From Candidatus Thorarchaeota archaeon (GTDB taxonomy: Archaea; Asgardarchaeota; Thorarchaeia; Thorarchaeales; Thorarchaeaceae), in contig JBHIAE010000069.1 in the NCBI GenBank assembly GCA_046758445.1, positions 1 through 13,630 of the forward strand: a DNA stretch of 13,630 bases, in the 5' to 3' direction. The position numbers and the translations under genes are program-made. Shown one piece after another: positions 1,867 to 13,630 of this stretch (position 1 is the stretch's first letter; the number at the start of each line of letters is the position of its first letter). The notes beneath the pieces were generated by a model that saw only the letters and a list, made by a program, of their open reading frames with translations, ran no database searches and had not been told where the DNA came from.

Positions 1867-1920
1867 GGTTTTCTTCAGTCCACAACCCTGCTGATGACGA
1901 TGGTTCAGAAATGAAAGAAC

Positions 1921-1955
1921 CGATGCGGCGGTGTAGTTTCGAACTGCGGATACAC
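1921..1955 (-). repeat. Degenerate copy of the tRNA-Phe 3' end (att-like remnant)
   Basis: CGATGCGGCGGTGTAGTTTCGAACTGCGGATA versus the reverse complement of spliced tRNA-Phe, TGGTGCCGCGGCGCGGATTTGAACCGCGGACA, gives 22/32 ungapped. Eight of the 10 mismatches are transitions, and the orientation is the same as the tRNA. Confidence 0.65.
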
Positions 1956-2253
1956 CATGTGAATTCTGGTCGAAATTCACAATAAACAGTTGGGCCAGTC
2001 TTAGACGTCACTCCTCCTATGAACAACCCAACATTTGCACTACTGTGGCTCCGCATTTCCGAGGGTTGAATTGACTAGAAGGAAGCCATATCTCGACTGG
2101 TGGTGGTCTGCAATGACCTAGAACGAGGGAAGAATCCTTGCTCTCTTCAATGAGGACAGGCGAATTGGTTAGATACGACGGATAGTGTTCCCCGGGACGC
2201 CGACTTGCTAGGTCGGGGGTATGATATGTGTACATTAGGGGCTGCCTACAAGC

Positions 2254-3864
2254 ATGATTATGACCGTTCCGAGAATCACACTCCGAAGATCCTCCATTGG
2301 CAGGCGCAACCCTGACGAGTGCGACCAACTCATGTGTGATTTCAATTCACAGCTCTTAACGCCAGAATTGCACGACATGGTAGTCAAGGAGCAGCCACCG
2401 ATACAAAGGATGGAGAATCTGGCACAGGTGGCTGAGGACGTCTATGAGAGGGCCATTGGGAAGAATGCACGATTTGTGTTCTGGGAGGTCAATCAAGCCT
2501 ATCAGTCCGATTACACGATAACACCTCAAGGAATAGAGAACAAGCTTCGGGAATGCTTTGGACAGGAGGTGTTTGGTCAGCATATCCGTGTGGGGCATGT
2601 AGACGGACGATTATATCTCTGGAATCCTGACACGAAACCTAACAATCTGCTTAAGGCCTATGACCGCCAATTCTTCTACTTTCGAAGCGAAGACGAACTT
2701 GCACTACTCACGAAGCTTGCCGCACACATGATCCTATCAGACCACCCTTCTCAATCTCTTTCACATTTGAATCGGTTGATGCAACAGCTAGTTCACAGGG
2801 ATATATCGTACCTGAGGGAGAGGAAATCTCGCATTGAGGGGGCTTCCCTACATCTCCTCAGCGATATCTTGGGAATGACTCCGAGTCACCTTGAAGGAAG
2901 AATTGTCAAGATTGCTGGAGCCAATGGCAATGGAGGGATACGAAGCCCAAGATTCCCTGAGAACATGAACCTCGAGATTCTGAGAGCTCGTTTCATAGGC
3001 GTTGCCGTCAGTGATTGTTACATCCCTGAGTCGGGCACCTTGGAATTTTCTGAAGGTAGCCTAGACCGAATAGACCGGTTCAAATGTCTGCTCAGCGAGT
3101 TTGGCATGGCACATGGTAAGGAGTGTTTCTACAAGGAGAAGGGTCATTACAAGCTGTATGTCGCAAGCCCCCTAACCGCCGCACTTCACTTCTGGGAGAT
3201 ACCATCGGGTGACAGAACCATTCTGAACTATGGTTTACCAAGCGATGTTCCGACTTGGTCAAAGAAAGCCATGCGCGGATATATGCAGGAAATGCTAGCT
3301 CAAGAGGGAAACGTGGACAAGAATGGTGTGATTAACTGGACCCGATCTCATGCATTGTATGATGGGCGAAAGGCTACAAAGTATGGATTTCGGTCAAGAA
3401 TATCCGTCGAAACTAGGGAGTTCCTCGCTGAATCCAAACTGACGAGAAAGCATACTGGAATGGTTTCCGAGCGTTCTATTCCCATGGGACAACTCACGAA
3501 GCTAAGTCGCCTATCCGATGAATATCTTTCAAGGATAGCCAATGAACTTCGAAATGTTGTGTTTGCGTATCGAAATAGGCTGATTGACGATGAAAGAACG
3601 ATGAGCTTGAGTCTTCGTATAAAGGTTAAGCTCGACCCAGTTAGAATATCATTCTTTGAGAAATCGGACCGCGTTACTGTCCGATGGCAGGCCCGTGTGA
3701 GCGGACATGAGTCCAAGATTCGAAGCATCATCCTGATTGCCCCGAATTTCGACGTGAAGTATGATGACGCAATTGACTGGCTATTCAAGCAACCTGCTGA
3801 AGGTTTAGCGCCGATTCGATGCCAGCTTGAGCTAGAGGGGTTTGAGCTATCTAGTCAGGGATAA
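2254..3864 (+). CDS. Free-standing two-motif LAGLIDADG (DOD-type) homing-endonuclease-like protein with N-terminal extension; true start may lie further downstream
   Basis: Motif 1-like ARFIGVAVSDCYI (~2986-3024). Motif 2-like LPSDVPTWSKKAMRGYMQEMLAQEGNV (motif ~3277-3315). The spacing of about 95 aa is typical of intein-type endonucleases. No Hint/intein splice motifs are seen. Confidence 0.65.
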   Translation: MIMTVPRITLRRSSIGRRNPDECDQLMCDFNSQLLTPELHDMVVKEQPPIQRMENLAQVAEDVYERAIGKNARFVFWEVNQAYQSDYTITPQGIENKLRECFGQEVFGQHIRVGHVDGRLYLWNPDTKPNNLLKAYDRQFFYFRSEDELALLTKLAAHMILSDHPSQSLSHLNRLMQQLVHRDISYLRERKSRIEGASLHLLSDILGMTPSHLEGRIVKIAGANGNGGIRSPRFPENMNLEILRARFIGVAVSDCYIPESGTLEFSEGSLDRIDRFKCLLSEFGMAHGKECFYKEKGHYKLYVASPLTAALHFWEIPSGDRTILNYGLPSDVPTWSKKAMRGYMQEMLAQEGNVDKNGVINWTRSHALYDGRKATKYGFRSRISVETREFLAESKLTRKHTGMVSERSIPMGQLTKLSRLSDEYLSRIANELRNVVFAYRNRLIDDERTMSLSLRIKVKLDPVRISFFEKSDRVTVRWQARVSGHESKIRSIILIAPNFDVKYDDAIDWLFKQPAEGLAPIRCQLELEGFELSSQG

Positions 3865-3972
3865 TGGTGCCGCGGCGCGGATTTGAACTCCGCGACTAGG
3901 GGGCGAACCCCCATGTCTCCGCGGACAACACGGTCTTCAGCCGTGCGATCTCCCTGGCTGATCTACCGCGGC
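3865..3972 (-). tRNA. tRNA-Phe(GAA) with encoded CCA and a 31-nt intron at position 53/54
   Basis: Cloverleaf: acceptor GCCGCGG/CCGCGGC-A-CCA; D stem GATC/GATC; anticodon arm CACGG-CTGAAGA-CCGTG (anticodon at 3936-3938). The T arm CGCGG-TTCAAAT-CCGCG forms after removing 3888-3918. Confidence 0.96.
3888..3918 (-). other. Archaeal tRNA intron (relaxed bulge-helix-bulge) in the T arm
   Basis: Central helix CCGC/GCGG with 3-nt bulges GG^A and AG^T, inner helix GAC/GTC, capped by GGGGG-TTCG-CCCCC. Cleavage after the second bulge nucleotide restores G53-T54 exactly. The outer helix is not well paired. Confidence 0.88.
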
Positions 3973-4011: not shown

Positions 4012-4190
4012 GATAGCGACCAAGAGCACAGAATCTCTTGATATCCCGAAACAGAAATCGATGTGTAGCAAAAGCGATGAGTCAAGTCATGGGAGCACCC
4101 ACGATTCCCTTTGGTGTCCTTGTCTACGGCCTTCTAACAGTGAAGCTCGCAGTCTTCGGGTCTTTCCTGACTTGTGCTTGAGGCTCATGA

Positions 4191-4658
4191 CTAGTTGAGT
4201 GCTTGGGCTGCTTCCTTCACCTCATCGAAAGGAGGAAGCTTTTCGGGGTCTTCACTCACCCATCCGTACACTATCTTCCCGTTCCTATCAACGACAAATA
4301 CTGACCGCTTGGCCACATCCTTCATTCCTGCAAGACTCGAATACACGATGTCATAGGCATGAATGACAGTCTTCTCCCAATCAGAGAGTAGTGGGAACTG
4401 AATCTGGTTCTGATCCTTGAACGCCGCATGACTGAATATTCCATCAACGGATATACCGAGGACATTCACTCCCAGCTCGTTGTAGTCGCTTAGAGCGTCC
4501 CTGAACCGACAGAGCTCCTCCTTGCATACTGAAGTGAAATCCGCCGGATAGAACAAGAGGACAACTGGCCCCTTCTTCAGTTCTTCACTGAGTTTGATGC
4601 TCTTGCCGGGGGCTTCGAGAAGTTCGAAGTCTGGTGCACTATCTCCAACACTCATCAT
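4191..4658 (-). CDS. Peroxiredoxin (BCP/PrxQ or AhpE-like)
   Basis: VGDSAPDFEL; FYPADFTSVCKEELC (PxxxTxxC plus CxxxxC); GISVD; FPLLSD; RSVFVVD. The start was moved to MMSVGDS. Confidence 0.93.
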   Translation of the reverse strand: MMSVGDSAPDFELLEAPGKSIKLSEELKKGPVVLLFYPADFTSVCKEELCRFRDALSDYNELGVNVLGISVDGIFSHAAFKDQNQIQFPLLSDWEKTVIHAYDIVYSSLAGMKDVAKRSVFVVDRNGKIVYGWVSEDPEKLPPFDEVKEAAQALN

Positions 4659-4738
4659 TGTAGCCACCTCAAAATCACTATTGTTAAGTCTATGAGGCAC
4701 TTAAGGCTTCAGGTACAGATGTCTACTCGTGGGGCCTC

Positions 4739-5919: not shown

Positions 5920-6103
5920 CGGAACTCAATTCGACCTCGTGCGATTTGAACTCTGTGGCCCTGTGAGGCCGTGATGAGTGTGATCATGCCTCCCCCATGG
6001 CTTACTTGCGTGTATCACGAGGAGAACATAACATCTCAAGTTCTGTGTTTTCACACTTCTACACCAACGATACCAAAGGAAAACCCGTTTTGGTGGTCAC
6101 GTG

Positions 6104-7638: not shown

Positions 7639-7847
7639 GTTCGAGGCGGCCTCCTCTTGGAGTCTACCCTACAACATGCCTTCGTCCTAAAAGTGAGCTG
7701 CCGGACACCGCATAAATGAAACACCTATTGAAGCAAACAAGATGCAATGTGATCGTACAGAGATAGCGGCAGGATTCTACTCAGCTGACAATCTTTAACT
7801 CAGTAGATTACGAAATAGGAAGCAAGTATGGATGGAGGAGGCGCTGG

Positions 7848-8318
7848 TTGATTAGAATATTACTAGATAACGTTACTCCAATTGAAGATCTTATTGACCT
7901 CATAAAGGATGGTTACGCAAACGATTATCGGAGAATCTGGTCACTCTCCGAGCGAGTTGTCGGCTTGTTTATGCATGAATCAATAGGTTGGCTGGCTGGC
8001 AATGTCTACTCCATAATGACGGTGCTTGACTATGACCCGGCAAGAAGGAGCTGTGACTTGTTGATTCGATACTCTGGGGGAGCACTTTCCCTCATAGGGA
8101 CCGGTCGATCTGAGGATTTCATCTCTGACATGGTGAGAGCAATCTCTGGACTGGCTGAACAGAAGGAGTGGCTCTACAAAATCGAAAGGGCGAAAGTGAA
8201 ACCTGCAGGTGAAGAGTGTCCCTACTGTGGAGCATCTTACAGGTACCCAAAGGAGAAGGTGGGAGAGGATGGAACTGTGGAATGTCAGAACTGTGGAAGA
8301 CCATTCGCTCCCGGATAG
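7848..8318 (+). CDS. Hypothetical protein with C-terminal Zn ribbon
   Basis: CPYC...CQNC at the C-terminus. TTG start with a strong GGAGGAGG SD. Confidence 0.8.
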   Translation: MIRILLDNVTPIEDLIDLIKDGYANDYRRIWSLSERVVGLFMHESIGWLAGNVYSIMTVLDYDPARRSCDLLIRYSGGALSLIGTGRSEDFISDMVRAISGLAEQKEWLYKIERAKVKPAGEECPYCGASYRYPKEKVGEDGTVECQNCGRPFAPG

Positions 8319-8334
8319 AATCAAAGTGCGACTT

Positions 8335-8357
8335 AGATGGCTGGGCGAATTTTACAG
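8335..8357 (-). repeat. Possible highly decayed tRNA 3'-end copy (copy 1)
   Basis: AGATGG-CTGGGCGAATTTTACAG matches the consensus at about 15/24 with one gap. It lies 16 nt after a + strand stop, like the other copies. Confidence 0.35.
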
Positions 8358-9293
8358 GTGAATTGGCTCTCCCGGAACCTTCGGGAACAACGTTATCTCC
8401 CGAATGTGCGACCGTCTGGCAAGAAAGCGCACAAGTCTTTCAATACCTAGACCTCCGCCAGCACTAGGACCTAGCATGCTGGCCTTGGCAAGTTCAAGAT
8501 AGGGGCTGAAAGCCTGCAGTTGCAGCTTTCTCTCCTTCAGTTTCCTGACTAGAATCTCATATTTATAGTCCCGTTCTCCGCCGGAGAGCGCCTCACCGAA
8601 CCCTTCAGGGTAGAACATGTCATAGTTCACGTAGTGTCCTCTTCGCTCTTCTTCCTCTCTGTCGTAGAACTCTCTCTCGAAGTCCGTTATCCAGAACAGG
8701 TCCTCCTCGACACGAGAGATCTGGGACTCGAACTCTGGCCCTAGTTCGGCTCGAAGATCCCAGCTTGAGTATGTGCGAAATGGTTTTCTTGGAATCTTAA
8801 TGTACGAGTCCAGTTTCCTGAGCTCTTCGTCGCAAGTGTCTTTTACTCTTGTGAAGACATGAATCATCATGTCTTCCATCAATGATCTGAACTGCTCCGC
8901 TGTTGCATCTCTGATCTCAATGTCCAGTTGCGAGAACTCCAGAAGATGGCTATCACTCTTGATTCCTTTCTCCAATCGAACATTTGGGGACACTATGTAT
9001 ATTCCCTTGACATCCATAGCAGAAACTGCAATCTGCTTATGCATAATCATGCTCTTTGTTAGCTGGAGTTTCTGATTCAGGTACTCAATAGAAGCCTCAT
9101 AGACAGGGTGGCTCAACGGGTCAGTGATCGGGGACATGATCACTGGCATAAGCTGAAGGAGCCGTTCCTGATGGAGGAATTCATGAATCGCAAGCAGTGC
9201 CTCGGTCTGTATCCTAAGTATCTCGGCTATGCTTCCACAATCTTGTATATGTGACACAACCGGTTTCAAGGTTCGTGACTGGGTCATCTTCAT
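8352..9293 (-). CDS. asnA: Archaeal-type asparagine synthetase A (AsnRS paralog lacking the anticodon-binding domain)
   Basis: SPITDPL, LTKSMIMHKQ, SPNVRLE..HLLEFSQLD (motif 2), EFYD, GEALSGGER, SAGGGLGIERLVRF (motif 3). About 313 aa with no OB-fold. Confidence 0.9.
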   Translation of the reverse strand: MKMTQSRTLKPVVSHIQDCGSIAEILRIQTEALLAIHEFLHQERLLQLMPVIMSPITDPLSHPVYEASIEYLNQKLQLTKSMIMHKQIAVSAMDVKGIYIVSPNVRLEKGIKSDSHLLEFSQLDIEIRDATAEQFRSLMEDMMIHVFTRVKDTCDEELRKLDSYIKIPRKPFRTYSSWDLRAELGPEFESQISRVEEDLFWITDFEREFYDREEEERRGHYVNYDMFYPEGFGEALSGGERDYKYEILVRKLKERKLQLQAFSPYLELAKASMLGPSAGGGLGIERLVRFLARRSHIREITLFPKVPGEPIHL

Positions 9294-9411
9294 CACATAC
9301 AGGGTTTATCCTACCCGGGAGAGGAACCAAAGAAAAGGTCTTGCCAGAAAAAGTGGAAGATATAGCAAGAATAGCAATAGAACTATATGCTGAATGGAAT
9401 AATCTTCCATC

Positions 9412-9861
9412 ATGAGCGTGTTGAATGGTAAGGACTACCAGATTCTTACACTCCTCAAAGAGAACTCCCGAATGACGACAAAGGAGATGTCTGAGAAACT
9501 CGAGATTCCTCAAACGACTGTCCACAACCGAATCAAGAGGCTGACAAAGAGCGGCATCATAAAACGATTCACAATAGAGCTTGATAGAAAGAAGATTGGA
9601 AGGGCTCTCGTTGCCTATATTCTGTGTACTGTTTCCTACCGTTCCGCAAGAGGACAGAAGATTGACCAGTACTCTGTGGCACAGCAAATAGACAAACTTG
9701 CTGAGGTAGAAGAAGTGTCAATTGTGACTGGGGAGAATGATCTGATTGTGAAAGTGGCACTGAAAGACGTCGATGCATTGAATGACTTTGTGATATCCAC
9801 CTTGAGGAACATCGAAGGTGTGGAGAGGACAGTCACCAGCGTTGTTCTCTCAGAGATTTAA
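9412..9861 (+). CDS. Lrp/AsnC family transcriptional regulator
   Basis: HTH D.QIL.LLKENSR...TVHNRIKRL...GIIKRF, and RAM domain VTGENDLIVKV. Divergent from asnA. Confidence 0.95.
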   Translation: MSVLNGKDYQILTLLKENSRMTTKEMSEKLEIPQTTVHNRIKRLTKSGIIKRFTIELDRKKIGRALVAYILCTVSYRSARGQKIDQYSVAQQIDKLAEVEEVSIVTGENDLIVKVALKDVDALNDFVISTLRNIEGVERTVTSVVLSEI

Positions 9862-9903
9862 CGCAAGTCGAAGTCAAGAATCTCTGGAATGTTACTGAGA
9901 GAG

Positions 9904-9945
9904 TGATGGTCCGGGCTATGCCAGAAGACTTGGCATGGCGCCCGG
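9904..9945 (-). repeat. Decayed tRNA 3'-end copy (copy 2) embedded in a hairpin
   Basis: TGATGGTCCGGGC matches the consensus start at 11/13. Hairpin CCGGGC-TATGCCA / TGGCATG-GC-GCCCGG at 9911-9945. Confidence 0.5.
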
Positions 9946-10008
9946 TCTTGCTCGAGCCTGCACACTTATAATATTGGACGTCCGATACTTCTACGGTGGC
10001 ATCTGGCC

Positions 10009-10536
10009 TTGAAGCAAGAAATCAGAGGAAATGTGTTGAGCCCCTTGCCTGTAGCATTGGTTGGAGCCCTTGTAAATGGTCGCCCAAACTACTTGGTTAT
10101 TGGCTACATTTCACCGTTCAATTTTGGTAGGCACATCTTCTTCAGCCTGTACAAGAAACGCTACACAAGAATCGGTATCCATGAGAACATGACTTTCAGT
10201 GTGAACATACCATCGGAGGTGCTTCTGGAGAAGACCAGAATATGCGGAAGCAAATCTGGTCGTGACCATGACAAGTCATCGCTCTTTGAAGCATTCTATG
10301 GTGAGCTGAAGACGGCCCCAATGATTCGTGAGTGTCCAATCAACATGGAGTGTGAAGTCACAGAGATACTAGACTACGATCCCAATGAGGGCATCATTGG
10401 GAAGGTCATCGGATCATATGCTGACAGTCATGTGCTTGAAGACGGCAAGCTTGACATGAGGAAGGTCCACCCGCTCATCTGGGCTATTGGTGGTGATTTC
10501 AACTACTATCGACTCGGAGAGAGGATAGGTGACTAG
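10009..10536 (+). CDS. Flavin reductase family (flavoredoxin-like) FMN-binding protein
   Basis: PLPVALVGA...G.PN, FSVNIPS, CGSKSGRDHDK, APMIRECPINMEC. TTG start, with a TATA-like CTTATAAT at about 9966. Confidence 0.9.
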   Translation: MKQEIRGNVLSPLPVALVGALVNGRPNYLVIGYISPFNFGRHIFFSLYKKRYTRIGIHENMTFSVNIPSEVLLEKTRICGSKSGRDHDKSSLFEAFYGELKTAPMIRECPINMECEVTEILDYDPNEGIIGKVIGSYADSHVLEDGKLDMRKVHPLIWAIGGDFNYYRLGERIGD

Positions 10537-10556
10537 GATTTCTGGGTGAGTAGAAG

Positions 10557-10585
10557 TGCTAGGCCGGGCGAGTTCACATGTCAAG
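10557..10585 (-). repeat. Decayed tRNA 3'-end copy (copy 3)
   Basis: TGCTAGGCCGGGCGAG matches the consensus start at 13/16. It is followed by TCACATGT, which copy 4 also contains. Confidence 0.6.
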
Positions 10586-10654
10586 ATGCTAACACAGTTC
10601 GGGAATGTGGGTAGATAACACAACTTAACTGCAGGATGCTGCATTGGTCGCACA

Positions 10655-11680
10655 ATGAACATCGGTCAAGCAATCAAGGAACTTCCAAAGGCCGAGTTGC
10701 ACATCCACCTTCTGGGAGCAATACGTCCAAGTATGCTTCTCTCACTAATCCTAGAAACAGAGCCTGACTCAAGCTATAGAACAGTAGAGGACATCGCTCC
10801 TGTATTTCAGTTCCAAACATTTAGACATTTCATCCTGGCCTATACCAAGGTAGTTGACTATGTGACTCAAGAGAAGCATTTTGAGCAGATCGCTTTTGAG
10901 ATGCTAGAGGATTGTGCCAACTGCAACACGCGCTATGTTGAGGCAAGTTTCTCCGCCATAGACCACATCCAGAGAGGATTGAGTTATGAGAAGATGCTTG
11001 ACGCCATCAACAGGGGGGTACGCAGGGCTAAGCGTCGTTTTGGAATTGACTGCAGCATCAGAATTGACTTTGTTCGCAATGAAGGCCCGAGTGGTGCCAT
11101 GAGAATCCTAGACCTAATAGAGGCGAAACCTGACAATGTCATCTCAGTTGATATTGGGGGCAGTGAGGATCTTTATCCACCGAAACCTTTCGCGAATGCA
11201 TTCCGTCGCGCCCGAAGACTTGGTCTTCACACAGTTGCACATGCGGGCGAGGCGGCTGGTCCGAAATCTGTGTGGGAAGCTATCAAACACTTGAATGTAG
11301 AGCGTGTTGGACATGCGGTTTCAGCAGTAAGAGACCAGAAACTCCTTGACCGAATGAAGTCACAAGGGATTGGTATTGAGTCATGTCCAACTAGTAATCT
11401 AAGGACTGGGGCTGTACAATCTCTGCAGGACCATCCCATAAGAGAGTTCTATGACCGCGAACTCTTAGTGACAGTGAATAGCGACGATCCAACATTCTTC
11501 CAGACAGATCTGAACAACGAATACCTGCAGCTCAATCAGAAGCTGGGCTTCTCGATATCAGATCTGTTTCAGCTGTCTGTCAACGCAATTGAAGCATCGT
11601 TCCTGCCAGAGGAAAGGAAGGAGAGAATGCGAAACTCGTTTAGAAAGGAGGCTGAACAGATCTGCGATTCAGTTGATTGA
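10655..11680 (+). CDS. add: Adenosine/adenine deaminase
   Basis: LPKAELHIHL, HAGE, ERVGHA, CPTSN and VTVNSDDP motifs. Confidence 0.93.
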   Translation: MNIGQAIKELPKAELHIHLLGAIRPSMLLSLILETEPDSSYRTVEDIAPVFQFQTFRHFILAYTKVVDYVTQEKHFEQIAFEMLEDCANCNTRYVEASFSAIDHIQRGLSYEKMLDAINRGVRRAKRRFGIDCSIRIDFVRNEGPSGAMRILDLIEAKPDNVISVDIGGSEDLYPPKPFANAFRRARRLGLHTVAHAGEAAGPKSVWEAIKHLNVERVGHAVSAVRDQKLLDRMKSQGIGIESCPTSNLRTGAVQSLQDHPIREFYDRELLVTVNSDDPTFFQTDLNNEYLQLNQKLGFSISDLFQLSVNAIEASFLPEERKERMRNSFRKEAEQICDSVD

Positions 11681-11710
11681 CGCTTGAATCAGTTTGAAGC
11701 ACAGAACGAA

Positions 11711-11759
11711 TGGTGGACGGGCGAGATTTGAACTGGCGACTTGCGACTCTCTCACATGT
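11711..11759 (-). repeat. tRNA 3'-half copy (copy 4, best preserved)
   Basis: TGGTGGAC-GGGCGAGATTTGAACTGGCGAC; the reverse complement is GTC-GCCAG-TTCAAAT-CTCGC-CCGTCC-A-CCA (T arm, acceptor strand, CCA). It may extend to the anticodon stem (CTCTCACATG). No 5' half is present. Confidence 0.88.
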
Positions 11760-11802
11760 TGATAAAGCAAGAACTTTAACCGCTGGCTACTTAACAATAA
11801 TT

Positions 11803-12213
11803 ATGAGCGAACCAAAGACAACACCTACGGATGTGGACGTGGAGGACTTCCTAAATGCGGTTGAACATCCTCGGAGAAAAGAGGACGGATTTGAACTCTT
11901 ACGAATTATGAGGGAAATCACTAAGGAAGAACCTGTGATGTGGGGTCCGAGCATAGTCGGTTTTGGTTCATACCACTATAGGTACGAGAGTGGTCGTGAG
12001 GGTGACATGCCTGTCACGGGATTCTCCCCGCGAAAAAGGAGCCTATCGGTGTATATTATGTCGGGTTTCGATGAGTACAGCGATCTCTTAGGAAGACTTG
12101 GCAAGCACCGGGTCGGAAAATCATGTCTCTACATAAACAAACTCGCAGATGTAGACATCTCGATACTCAAAGAGATAATCAAGGAATCCGTTGAGGAACT
12201 TACCAAAGAATGA
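11803..12213 (+). CDS. DUF1801 (YdhG-like) domain protein
   Basis: KT.PT..DV..FL, MWGPSIVGFGSYHYRYESGREGD, GFSPRK, LGKH..GKSCLYI.KL.DVD. The start was moved to ATG 11803. Confidence 0.92.
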   Translation: MSEPKTTPTDVDVEDFLNAVEHPRRKEDGFELLRIMREITKEEPVMWGPSIVGFGSYHYRYESGREGDMPVTGFSPRKRSLSVYIMSGFDEYSDLLGRLGKHRVGKSCLYINKLADVDISILKEIIKESVEELTKE

Positions 12214-12235
12214 AACCAATGAACAACATAAAGAA

Positions 12236-12260
12236 TGGTGGATCGGGCGAAACGCGAACT
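12236..12260 (-). repeat. tRNA 3'-end copy (copy 5)
   Basis: TGGTGGATCGGGCGAAACGCGAACT matches the consensus at 20/25, ungapped. Confidence 0.82.
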
Positions 12261-12316
12261 AGCTCCGAACTAAACTTCTTTCAGAAGTGGTTTCTTAATG
12301 ATTTGGGAAACCACGA

Positions 12317-12817
12317 ATGTCATTTGGCGAAAACATGAAATTGCAATCTATCCAATGTATACATTGGAGAACAAGCCAGGTGAATGAGGATCACTTTCGC
12401 TTGATTGGTGAGGCACTGGCATTCGCTGGGACAGTGATACTCATATCTCCCATTTTAATGCCGCTTTTTCCCAGTTCTGCCCGTCCGTCCGTTTACCGCA
12501 TATATGAATTGTTCTTATTTCTTGGAGTCGTATCAGCCTGCAGTGGAGTGACTATTCTTAGAACGTTCAAAGAGATGAGGCCCTATCTTGCCAAGGCTGG
12601 TGAGCCCATACACTCAGGCAGGACTTGGAAGAAGGAGTCTGAGTCAGGCTTGTTCCTCACCTCATGTGAACGTGTGGTGTCAACAAACCTAGAATCAAGA
12701 GAAACAGTAGAAGTTGGATATAGACTTGTTTCGACAGAAGGCCCCACGTGCAGGGATTGCAGCATCAGGGCAGGGAGGGTAATATTGGAGAGCTTCGGAA
12801 AGCATAGATCATATTGA
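12317..12817 (+). CDS. Hypothetical two-TM membrane protein with C-terminal Cys motif (start uncertain)
   Basis: Two hydrophobic segments and a CRDC near the C-terminus. The ORF fills the space between copies 5 and 6. Confidence 0.6.
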   Translation: MSFGENMKLQSIQCIHWRTSQVNEDHFRLIGEALAFAGTVILISPILMPLFPSSARPSVYRIYELFLFLGVVSACSGVTILRTFKEMRPYLAKAGEPIHSGRTWKKESESGLFLTSCERVVSTNLESRETVEVGYRLVSTEGPTCRDCSIRAGRVILESFGKHRSY

Positions 12818-12822
12818 GGATA

Positions 12823-12848
12823 TGATGAACCGGGCGAGACTTGAACTC
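12823..12848 (-). repeat. tRNA 3'-end copy (copy 6)
   Basis: TGATGAACCGGGCGAGACTTGAACTC matches the consensus at 22/25, and all three mismatches are transitions. Confidence 0.85.
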
Positions 12849-12871
12849 AAAGATGCCTTCAGATTCAAACC

Positions 12872-13591
12872 TCATTCAAGATCATCATCGAATAATCGAC
12901 TGCTAGACCCACTTGCAGTTACTTCTTGTGCAAGTCTGTCCACAATTTGATTCAATTGCTCTGCTGTGTAGCTCCTTTGAATGGTCACTATGCCAGTCTG
13001 CTCCAAAAGAAGTGAATACAGAATTCCTCTTCCCTTGTAGTATGTATCCCTATCAACTGGAATTGTGAAATCACCCTCCCTTCTTGCGACTTTGAGATTC
13101 CCAATTGGATGGATATACTCCCACTTCCATATCACTCTTGGAAGTACAACACTCTTGTCAAATGATCTCTCAGACTCATAGAAACCCACAAAGAAGAGTA
13201 CGTTCGACCCCCATTGAGCAATAGCGTACACCGGGTCCTTGTTCAAGACCGCAACCTTTCCCTCGATGAATGGCTCAGGAGGGGACATTTGACGGAGAAT
13301 ACCCATGCCACGAAACAACATAGAACTCCCCGTACCATAGTATACAACGACGAGGATGCCAAGAGTTCCAATCGCGATAAGTGCGATGAACACAATCAAC
13401 ATAGTATCCCCAGGCAATGTGAATCGCGTAAGGATTATCGTGAAGAACAGAAGTGGGACTGCAACGCACATTATTGCACCAATGCGCAATCCTCTCTTGA
13501 TAGATCCTCGGAACTCTTCTTCAGAACTTGATTCCAAATCGCTATGAAACTCTTCCACAGTAGTTCCCAGCTTATGGGAAGACTCAGTCAT
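12872..13591 (-). CDS. Hypothetical two-TM membrane protein
   Basis: 239-aa ORF with two N-terminal TM helices and a soluble C-terminal domain. Confidence 0.75.
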   Translation of the reverse strand: MTESSHKLGTTVEEFHSDLESSSEEEFRGSIKRGLRIGAIMCVAVPLLFFTIILTRFTLPGDTMLIVFIALIAIGTLGILVVVYYGTGSSMLFRGMGILRQMSPPEPFIEGKVAVLNKDPVYAIAQWGSNVLFFVGFYESERSFDKSVVLPRVIWKWEYIHPIGNLKVARREGDFTIPVDRDTYYKGRGILYSLLLEQTGIVTIQRSYTAEQLNQIVDRLAQEVTASGSSSRLFDDDLE

Positions 13592-13630
13592 GAGATGAGA
13601 TAAGGTTTGGTGAGAAAAGAGGTGAAATGG

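Follow-up and report, generated by a model that had tools for sequence, protein, structure and literature searches.

Can single genes be collected, one behind another, at the end of a tRNA gene by a system that encodes no integrase of its own? The question is raised by a 13,630-nucleotide stretch of DNA from a Candidatus Thorarchaeota archaeon (contig JBHIAE010000069.1 of assembly GCA_046758445.1; hereafter ‘the window’), which is the entire contig C69 of the genome referred to here as G000. This genome is an archaeal metagenome-assembled genome (MAG) of 3.25 Mb in 113 contigs, with a G+C content of 49% and many tRNA genes that contain introns and an encoded CCA; all of the genomes compared are likewise MAGs. 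An initial annotation of the window had described six copies of a tRNA 3' end, all in the same orientation and separated by genes of unrelated function, and had suggested an integron-like array of captured gene cassettes. Our preferred reading is that the window, from ∼7.7 kb to the contig end, is the tRNA-distal part of an array of small mobile cassettes located downstream of tRNA-Ala(GGC). Each cassette usually holds one gene, in either orientation, and possesses a copy of the tRNA 3' end (its final 19–45 nucleotides) on its tRNA-distal side as well as its own T-rich trailer.

Copies of a tRNA-Ala 3' end and the gene that anchors them

The 25-mer first recognized in the window is the reverse complement of a tRNA-Ala 3' end, comprising the T loop, the 3' strand of the T stem, the acceptor strand CCGGTCC and ACCA. 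We assign it to tRNA-Ala because it places the alanine-specific U70 opposite G3; its best match in G000 is tRNA-Ala(CGC), with a single mismatch. A semi-global gapped scan for the motif (both strands of G000, 6.5 Mb in total) and a profile built from 59 fragments of other genomes only, from which the E values are taken, gave the following picture of the copies.

11710–11734, minus strand: tRNA-Ala 3'-end fragment (24/25, one gap; score 22; E = 6.7e-7 in the window, 1.6e-4 genome-wide)
12236–12260, minus strand: tRNA-Ala 3'-end fragment, partly decayed (20/25; score 15; E = 1.8e-4 in the window, 0.042 genome-wide)
12823–12847, minus strand: tRNA-Ala 3'-end fragment (22/25; score 19; E = 1.4e-5 in the window, 0.0034 genome-wide)
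13628–13630, minus strand: first three bases (TGG) of a fourth fragment, on which the contig breaks
10557–10581, minus strand: decayed tRNA-Ala fragment at the left edge of the deaminase cassette (score 7; E = 0.29; backed by its position in relatives)
9904–9928, minus strand: claimed weak copy, doubtful (E = 1.1; part of a hairpin that G010 also conserves; no relative has a breakpoint here)
8335–8359, minus strand: claimed weak copy, unsupported (missed by the profile; not conserved in G010; the indel at the Zn-ribbon gene stops short of 8335)

The positions of these copies, their spacings (1569, 653, 1154, 525 and 587 bp), their distances of 5–42 nucleotides beyond the preceding plus-strand stop codons and the gene content of the intervals were all as first described. 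Roughly 19 sites in G000 score 15 or higher and, apart from the three right-hand copies, all of them are true tRNA genes. A genome-wide scatter of the motif, set beforehand as a test of the idea, was therefore not observed; this contig is the one place where it is found other than in true tRNA genes. The copy at 12823–12847 is the sole match in the window with three or fewer mismatches, where none is expected, and tRNA-like sequence at the 11710 copy, which forms the left edge of the DUF1801 cassette, extends to approximately 11740. The same three copies coincide with limits of homology: similarity to G007, G009 and G010 stops at the 11710–11734 fragment, similarity to G012 stops at 12258 (inside the 12236–12260 fragment), and similarity to contig C242 of G010 begins at 12819, beside the 12823 fragment.

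The three left-hand copies are not significant by sequence, and chance matches at 5952, 9743 and 11897 of the window score equal to or above them. At the position orthologous to 10557, G009 reads TGTGGGCCGGGCGAGATTAGTCAAT, directly abutting the deaminase cassette, and G010 has a recognizable remnant, ...GACCGACCGAGAATCGAATCC. Judged by these better-kept copies at the orthologous boundary, the 10557 element is a real but decayed fragment. Of the six copies originally proposed, the three on the right stand and 10557 is recovered by its orthologous position, while those at 9904 and 8335 are at chance level.

The window's last bases read ...gaggtgaaaTGG, and the same place in G010 and G007 reads ggaggtgaaaTGGTGGACCGGGCGAGA...; in both relatives the sequence runs on as TGGTGGACCGGGCGAGA..., which makes up a fourth fragment. 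Independent Logan assemblies of the same population stop at or just before position 13630. Since the fragments lie on the minus strand in the tRNA sense, an intact gene would be expected to the right, past the contig end. The initial annotation had named the lack of a cognate tRNA in that direction as grounds for rejecting its proposal; such a gene is found in a syntenic contig of a congener. Contig C242 of G010, which is collinear with window positions 12819–13630, contains in order a fragment (534–558), cassette D, a fragment (1333–1357), a 0.5-kb cassette, a fragment (1900–1924), a 1-kb cassette encoding an Rce1-like protease and finally, in the expected orientation, an intact tRNA-Ala(GGC) (2883–2959). 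This is the arrangement that Islander looks for, with displaced 3' tDNA fragments in direct orientation downstream of the cognate tDNA.

An ‘Ala GGC’ gene called by ARAGORN on contig C2 of G000 has no G3:U70 pair and is not tRNA-Ala. In two single-contig assemblies the arrays (G004:C1:1758000-1762300 and G056:C1:496000-497700) are followed by no tRNA-Ala that can be recognized as intact within 6 kb; in these genomes either introns make the tRNA unusual or array and anchor have become separated.

Cassettes and their variation among relatives

The fragments delimit four cassettes at the right-hand end of the window.

10582–11709, plus strand: cassette A, adenosine deaminase (open reading frame (ORF) 10655–11680; PF00962, E = 2.9e-82)
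11735–12235, plus strand: cassette B, DUF1801 protein (ORF 11803–12213; PF08818)
12261–12822, plus strand: cassette C, orphan protein (ORF 12317–12817; no Pfam match)
12848–13627, minus strand: cassette D, 239-residue protein of unknown family (ORF 12872–13591; no Pfam family above threshold)

In congeners at ∼85–87% DNA identity the differences from this arrangement consist of whole cassettes, with breakpoints at the repeats, and gene order is not conserved. With the confined motif and the tRNA to the right, this makes three observations, each named in the initial annotation as a possible refutation, that have all turned out in favour of its proposal. Cassette A is present end to end in G007, G009 and G010 with differing left or right neighbours, and in G009 it sits behind quite different genes. 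Cassette B is missing at this place in G007; G012 lacks the segment corresponding to 7654–11800, and cassette B therefore adjoins the conserved GNAT flank directly in that genome. Only the 3' half of cassette C is common to G007, and weaker relatives of it occur in the G080 array. Cassette D is found between fragments in G007, G010 and G012, in the last of which 3.1 kb of other DNA lies ahead of it. Positions 7708–8343 are missing from G010, and an extra 671 bp is present at 10572–10614 in both G010 and G007.

Fragment arrays are general in the family: 3–11 same-strand fragments are found together in the congeners G004, G005, G007, G009, G010, G012 and G015 and in four other genera. The largest contain 11 same-strand copies in 14.8 kb (G009) and 10 copies (G005), while G015, G004, G076, G080, G077, G046 and G056 have two to seven each. 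Most cassettes measure 0.4–1.6 kb and hold one ORF (a few are 2–5 kb), and the two strands are about equally represented among these ORFs. An all-against-all comparison showed that cassettes match end to end across genomes in which their neighbours differ, and that their orientation relative to the fragments is constant in every match. Their orders conflict: cassette F precedes G in G004 and follows it in G009, and the same is true of the pairs I/J, M/N and N/F, so that deletion alone cannot account for the differences.

The cassettes also differ from their surroundings in how closely they resemble one another. Between G009 and G005, cassette F is 91% identical and neighbouring core DNA 74%; between G010 and G004, cassette E is 90% identical and core DNA ∼71%. 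Such comparisons involve different genes and are imperfect to that extent, although the gaps are large and the alignments take in non-coding ends. Conversely, G005 and G015 are ∼93% identical in core DNA, yet have only one clear cassette in common. There is good support for the view that these units move through recombination at the tRNA-tail copies, and the analogy with integrons made in the initial annotation holds as a description of behaviour, in that the cassettes are modular, reordered and exchanged between species.

Approximately 40 ORFs from the arrays of many genomes encode luciferase-like monooxygenases, old-yellow-enzyme-type reductases, an FMN reductase, flavodoxin, a methyltransferase, GNAT, kinase, beta-lactamase-fold and solute-binding proteins, and surface proteins (LVIVD, NosD and FG-GAP). 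In G020, G005, G015, G014 and G013, no fragments were detectable beside homologues of the flavin reductase and DUF1801 genes, indicating that these two genes also exist outside arrays.

To the left of cassette A lies an older part of the variable region, whose genes were assigned by Pfam.

7708–10556: older, decayed part of the variable region
7848–8318: Zn-ribbon gene, affected by an indel that spans 7708 to about 8310
8352–9296, minus strand: AsnA-like class II synthetase paralogue
9412–9861: Lrp/AsnC regulator, divergent from the AsnA-like gene
10009–10536: flavin reductase

The divergent AsnA-like and Lrp/AsnC genes (8352–9861) are arranged like asnA-asnC of E. coli, and the AsnA-like gene moves with its own regulator within the variable region. 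Between the Lrp and flavin reductase genes, at 9900–9950, is a hairpin of ∼45 nucleotides (CCGGGC-TATGCCA-loop-TGGCATG-GCGCCCGG) that is better conserved with G010 than its surroundings and that, on the minus strand, bears a loose likeness to the anticodon loop of tRNA-Ala(GGC) joined to the acceptor end.

The site of exchange and its possible catalyst

Alignment of 60 fragments in register defined where their likeness to the tRNA ends. The sequence TGGTGGACCGGGCGAGATT is strongly common to them, the next four bases less so, and beyond these the sequence is that of the cassette on the tRNA-proximal side. The length of identity to the tRNA peaks at 22–23 nucleotides from the 3' end, at the far edge of the T loop, and a second group of lengths falls at 39–46 nucleotides, in the anticodon arm. 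The fragments therefore contain what Islander seeks, a block of identity that starts at a loop crossover site and reaches the 3' end of the tRNA, and both the T loop and the anticodon loop are crossover sublocations of tRNA-targeting integrases (PMC4383910). At least four of the five T-stem pairs are kept across the loop in 31 of the 60 fragments, as compared with 7.7% by chance. Three of the six fragments in G080 join different T-stem variants across the T loop, as would be expected if exchange occurs in the loop.

On the other side of the site, the nine nucleotides that abut the CCA end are 84% purine on the plus strand and thus T-rich in the tRNA sense; by comparison, real tRNA trailers of G000 are 79% pyrimidine and random 9-mers 50%. 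It follows that each cassette supplies a new tRNA trailer, an arrangement that makes sense only if insertion is, or was, directly behind an intact gene. Some fragments include tRNA intron sequence, which indicates copying from DNA rather than from mature tRNA. Fragment quality increases toward the tRNA (pooled rho 0.40, p = 0.0016, in related arrays that are not independent). The initial proposal that cassettes were added serially at the tRNA, pushing older ones leftward, agrees with this trend; it is less easily reconciled with the placement of the deaminase block, which lies to the left of a DUF1801 cassette that in other genomes directly follows the conserved flank. We conclude that internal copies probably serve as targets as well.

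We lean towards site-specific capture of cassettes at the tail of tRNA-Ala(GGC), by a recombinase acting in trans, as the explanation that is on balance probable. A cassette would first exist as a circle with a short tRNA-like site, which would recombine, by a crossover in the T loop or in some cases the anticodon loop, either with the tRNA gene itself or with a spare copy that is still intact. The tRNA would then be completed by the cassette's own copy, and the old 3' end would be displaced outward as a fragment and begin to decay. Repeated insertion, excision and re-insertion would build and shuffle the array, and cassettes would pass between species. A recombinase in trans had been part of the initial annotation; our searches identified none, and we infer one because the points at which identity ends, the preservation of inverted T-stem arms and the existence of hybrid fragments are best read in that way. 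Such an enzyme might be encoded elsewhere, lie on an unbinned element or belong to an unrecognized family.

In agreement with the initial annotation, none of the window's sizeable ORFs matched an integrase or transposase family. In G010, G046 and G080, tRNA-Ala(GGC) has beside it genes for HEAT-repeat, RHH, LRR and beta-lactamase-fold proteins, none of them related to recombination. Ten integrases from genomes of the family had neither a tRNA nor flanking repeats in their contexts, and tblastn of the same ten against all arrays revealed no remnant. Among five array-rich genomes, IS110 was found only in G000. Overall, the array-bearing genomes have no tyrosine, serine, Cas1, Y1 or IS110 recombinase in common, and none is present within the arrays or next to them. 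The five genomes searched for Resolvase, Cas1, Y1 and IS110 are 83–95% complete, with plasmids and viruses usually unbinned, and the enzyme may therefore be carried on an extrachromosomal element. As a separate observation, PF00589 was detected in 8 of the 23 high-quality family genomes; many archaea of the Thorarchaeota family seem to do without even an Xer-type recombinase, unless the first-pass filter of the search misses it.

Several of our results weigh against capture by a dedicated recombinase. No recombinase was found among the ∼40 array ORFs, and Resolvase, Cas1 and Y1 transposase were undetected in the five array-rich genomes. PF00589, which was sought in G000, five relatives and 61 family genomes, was detected in 23 of the 61 and in one of ten other congeners searched. 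The 19-mer core matched no viral contig, and the 80 metagenome contigs that contain the 19-mer included no circular cassette contig and no terminal overlap, in a scan made unspecific by the presence of the 19-mer in many archaeal tRNA-Ala genes. Cassette order is fixed across assemblies of this population, and exact-protein look-ups of the cassette proteins returned only same-population assemblies with the same order. The polarity of insertion is a trend only. The anchor is seen only in a congener, as tRNA-Ala(GGC) is absent from the assembled contigs of G000. Finally, some joins at repeats could be errors of MAG assembly, which is unlikely given so many independent assemblies.

The main rival explanation, which we regard as unlikely but worth serious consideration, dispenses with a dedicated recombinase and treats the spare tRNA ends as short, portable homology for RadA: cassettes would pop out between direct repeats, and either the circles would re-insert or foreign fragment-cassette-fragment DNA would be swapped in by double crossover. 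That no recombinase family is common to the array-bearing genomes and that insertions are not strictly at the tRNA end are both in keeping with it, as is the ability of some archaea to recombine with very short homology. It fits poorly with the many copies that have just 19–23 nucleotides in common with the tRNA, with identity endpoints that cluster at the T loop and the anticodon loop rather than being spread, and with inverted T-stem arms kept in half of the copies, and it does not account for the initial joining of a tRNA end and trailer to a new gene. A further rival, which we consider distinctly improbable, is that the array represents the decayed remains of larger integrase-carrying islands or proviruses that integrated serially at tRNA-Ala and were then mostly deleted. 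That elements accrete in tandem and leave partial tRNAs behind is well known (Islander, PMC4383910; tycheposon, 10.1101/2020.12.28.424599), and the older copies in the window are indeed decayed. Against this, the ∼40 array ORFs include no integrase remnant and no replication or virion gene, and tblastn found nothing; single-gene units recur with exact ends in other genomes and orders, which random decay would not reproduce; and tandems of at least three islands account for only 4 of 3919 in Islander (PMC4383910).

We attach hardly any weight to the suggestion that the similarity is due to chance or to a functional intergenic motif (such as a terminator) unrelated to recombination. Although two of the six claimed copies do no better than chance, the three strong copies match a profile derived from other genomes, contain the Ala-specific acceptor sequence, coincide with breakpoints in relatives and, in G010, lead on to an intact tRNA. 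Two other readings were rejected. The plus-strand motif resembles a primer-binding site, and retro-copying of tRNA-primed cDNA was considered on that account; it is ruled out by the intron sequence in copies and by genes facing both ways. Split or permuted tRNA halves are ruled out by copies that vary from 16 to 50 nucleotides, are decayed (a 1-nucleotide deletion, substitutions) and then give way to unrelated cassette DNA.

Known systems, other tRNA genes and implications

The closest parallels to site-specific capture at the tRNA-Ala tail are the tycheposons of Prochlorococcus (10.1101/2020.12.28.424599) and the islands catalogued by Islander (PMC4383910). In each case the 3' part of a tRNA is targeted and the incoming DNA restores the gene; displaced partial tRNAs remain in direct orientation at the boundaries, with newer inserts pushing older ones outward; and identity blocks begin in the T loop or anticodon loop and reach the 3' end. 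Those islands span 5–100 kb, whereas the Thorarchaeota units consist of one gene in 0.4–1.6 kb and contain no integrase, replication gene or remnant of either. The Thorarchaeota arrays further differ in having 10 or more units, with the same unit appearing in other orders, and in residing in an Asgard family whose recognizable tyrosine recombinases are sporadic. Islander requires one integrase per island, and none is present in the window or the ∼40 array ORFs; a tycheposon requires a tyrosine or large serine recombinase with a replication or packaging module, in place of which we find only cargo-type genes. Casposons depend on a Cas1 casposase, and PF01867 (Cas1) was unmatched in G000, G005, G009, G015 and G077.

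The arrays resemble integrons in comprising mostly single-gene, recombinase-free cassettes at one chromosomal platform with variable content and order, in having cassettes common across species, and in the tendency of insertion toward the anchor end. Unlike integrons, they have no intI beside the insertion site (it is not among the genes beside tRNA-Ala(GGC) in G010, G046 and G080); their repeats are tRNA-Ala 3' ends, about half of them with only a 5-bp T-stem inverted repeat, rather than the imperfect palindromes of attC; their ORFs lie on both strands, with no common promoter logic, rather than being co-oriented and read from a platform promoter; and their anchor is an essential tRNA gene that must be rebuilt at each insertion. 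Integrons themselves have reportedly been described in archaeal MAGs, by Ghaly and colleagues in 2022.

Trans-acting mobilization has precedents. Cis-mobilizable elements (CIMEs) are flanked by att sites, encode no integrase and are mobilized by a related integrative and conjugative element (ICE) that provides the enzyme in trans. CIMEs and the Thorarchaeota cassettes are alike as att-bounded DNA without its own recombinase that depends on a trans enzyme; CIMEs differ in occurring singly, next to an integrase-encoding ICE, whereas no helper element was seen at or near the Thorarchaeota arrays. Gene capture by SSV-type integrases in archaeal chromosomes is said to have been reported by She and colleagues in 2001. 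It too is archaeal and leaves captured foreign DNA bordered by tRNA-fragment direct repeats, but it splits the integrase gene, with the halves at the borders; no such halves were found here, and the units are far smaller. By these comparisons the scar pattern is that of classical tRNA integration with tandem accretion, as in tycheposon islands, and the behaviour that of an integron. Defining features of both are lacking, namely an integrase within the units, intI, attC and a common orientation.

Other tRNA genes of G000 also have variable or repeated surroundings. The tRNA-Phe(GAA) gene of the window (3865–3972, minus strand) contains a 31-nucleotide insertion exactly between the 5' strand of the T stem and the T loop (53/54); its orthologue in G012 has no insertion and is a plain 77-nucleotide tRNA. 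ARAGORN mis-calls this gene as 3889–3971, and an Rfam scan of the window yielded zero matches, this intron-bearing tRNA-Phe being among the misses. The position of the insertion is where cassette fragments lose tRNA-Ala identity, and recalls an idea reportedly put forward by Randau and Soll in 2008, that archaeal tRNA introns interrupt integration sites. Directly behind the tRNA-Phe 3' end is a 2-kb block (1885–3864), with a 536-residue ORF that has no Pfam family, which is missing in G012. A possible decayed tRNA-Phe 3' copy lies near the breakpoint at 1924–1948 (18/25, in register; 3.7% of random windows score equally), and the block may be a single cassette at a second tRNA. A peroxiredoxin (AhpC/TSA) gene on the 5' side of tRNA-Phe (4018–4737) is missing in G012 too, making both tRNA-Phe flanks variable.

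Elsewhere in G000, an exact 24-nucleotide copy of a tRNA-Gln 3' end is located 1.7 kb downstream of tRNA-Gln(TTG) (C3:78138), and a tRNA-Leu 3' copy with three mismatches 0.7 kb downstream of tRNA-Leu(TAG) (C70:1202); both look like single cassettes at other tRNAs. ARAGORN also reports tRNAs with ‘introns’ of 599–1472 nucleotides at C8:70841, C25:9538 and C34:3011, which are probably false calls.

Literature searches found no published description of such arrays in Asgard archaea. With some caution we suggest that Thorarchaeota, and perhaps Asgard archaea more widely, may possess a true functional analogue of the integron of a different construction, in which promoter-independent one-gene cassettes, each with a 19–23-nucleotide tRNA-tail site and a replacement trailer, are inserted, excised and traded at an essential tRNA by an unrecognized recombinase family or by host machinery that reads the tRNA 3' end. 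The shortness of the site (a 19–23-nucleotide core and a T-rich tract) and the sharp cassette ends make the idea directly testable. If true, this would be a second, independently evolved cassette-array system beside integrons, and would point to a recombination activity not yet known. If the system is active, Asgard archaea would have a compact, integrase-free means by which to gather single accessory genes at tRNA genes and trade them (here mostly for flavin-dependent redox enzymes, small-molecule-modifying enzymes and surface proteins), which would explain part of their large and flexible gene pool.

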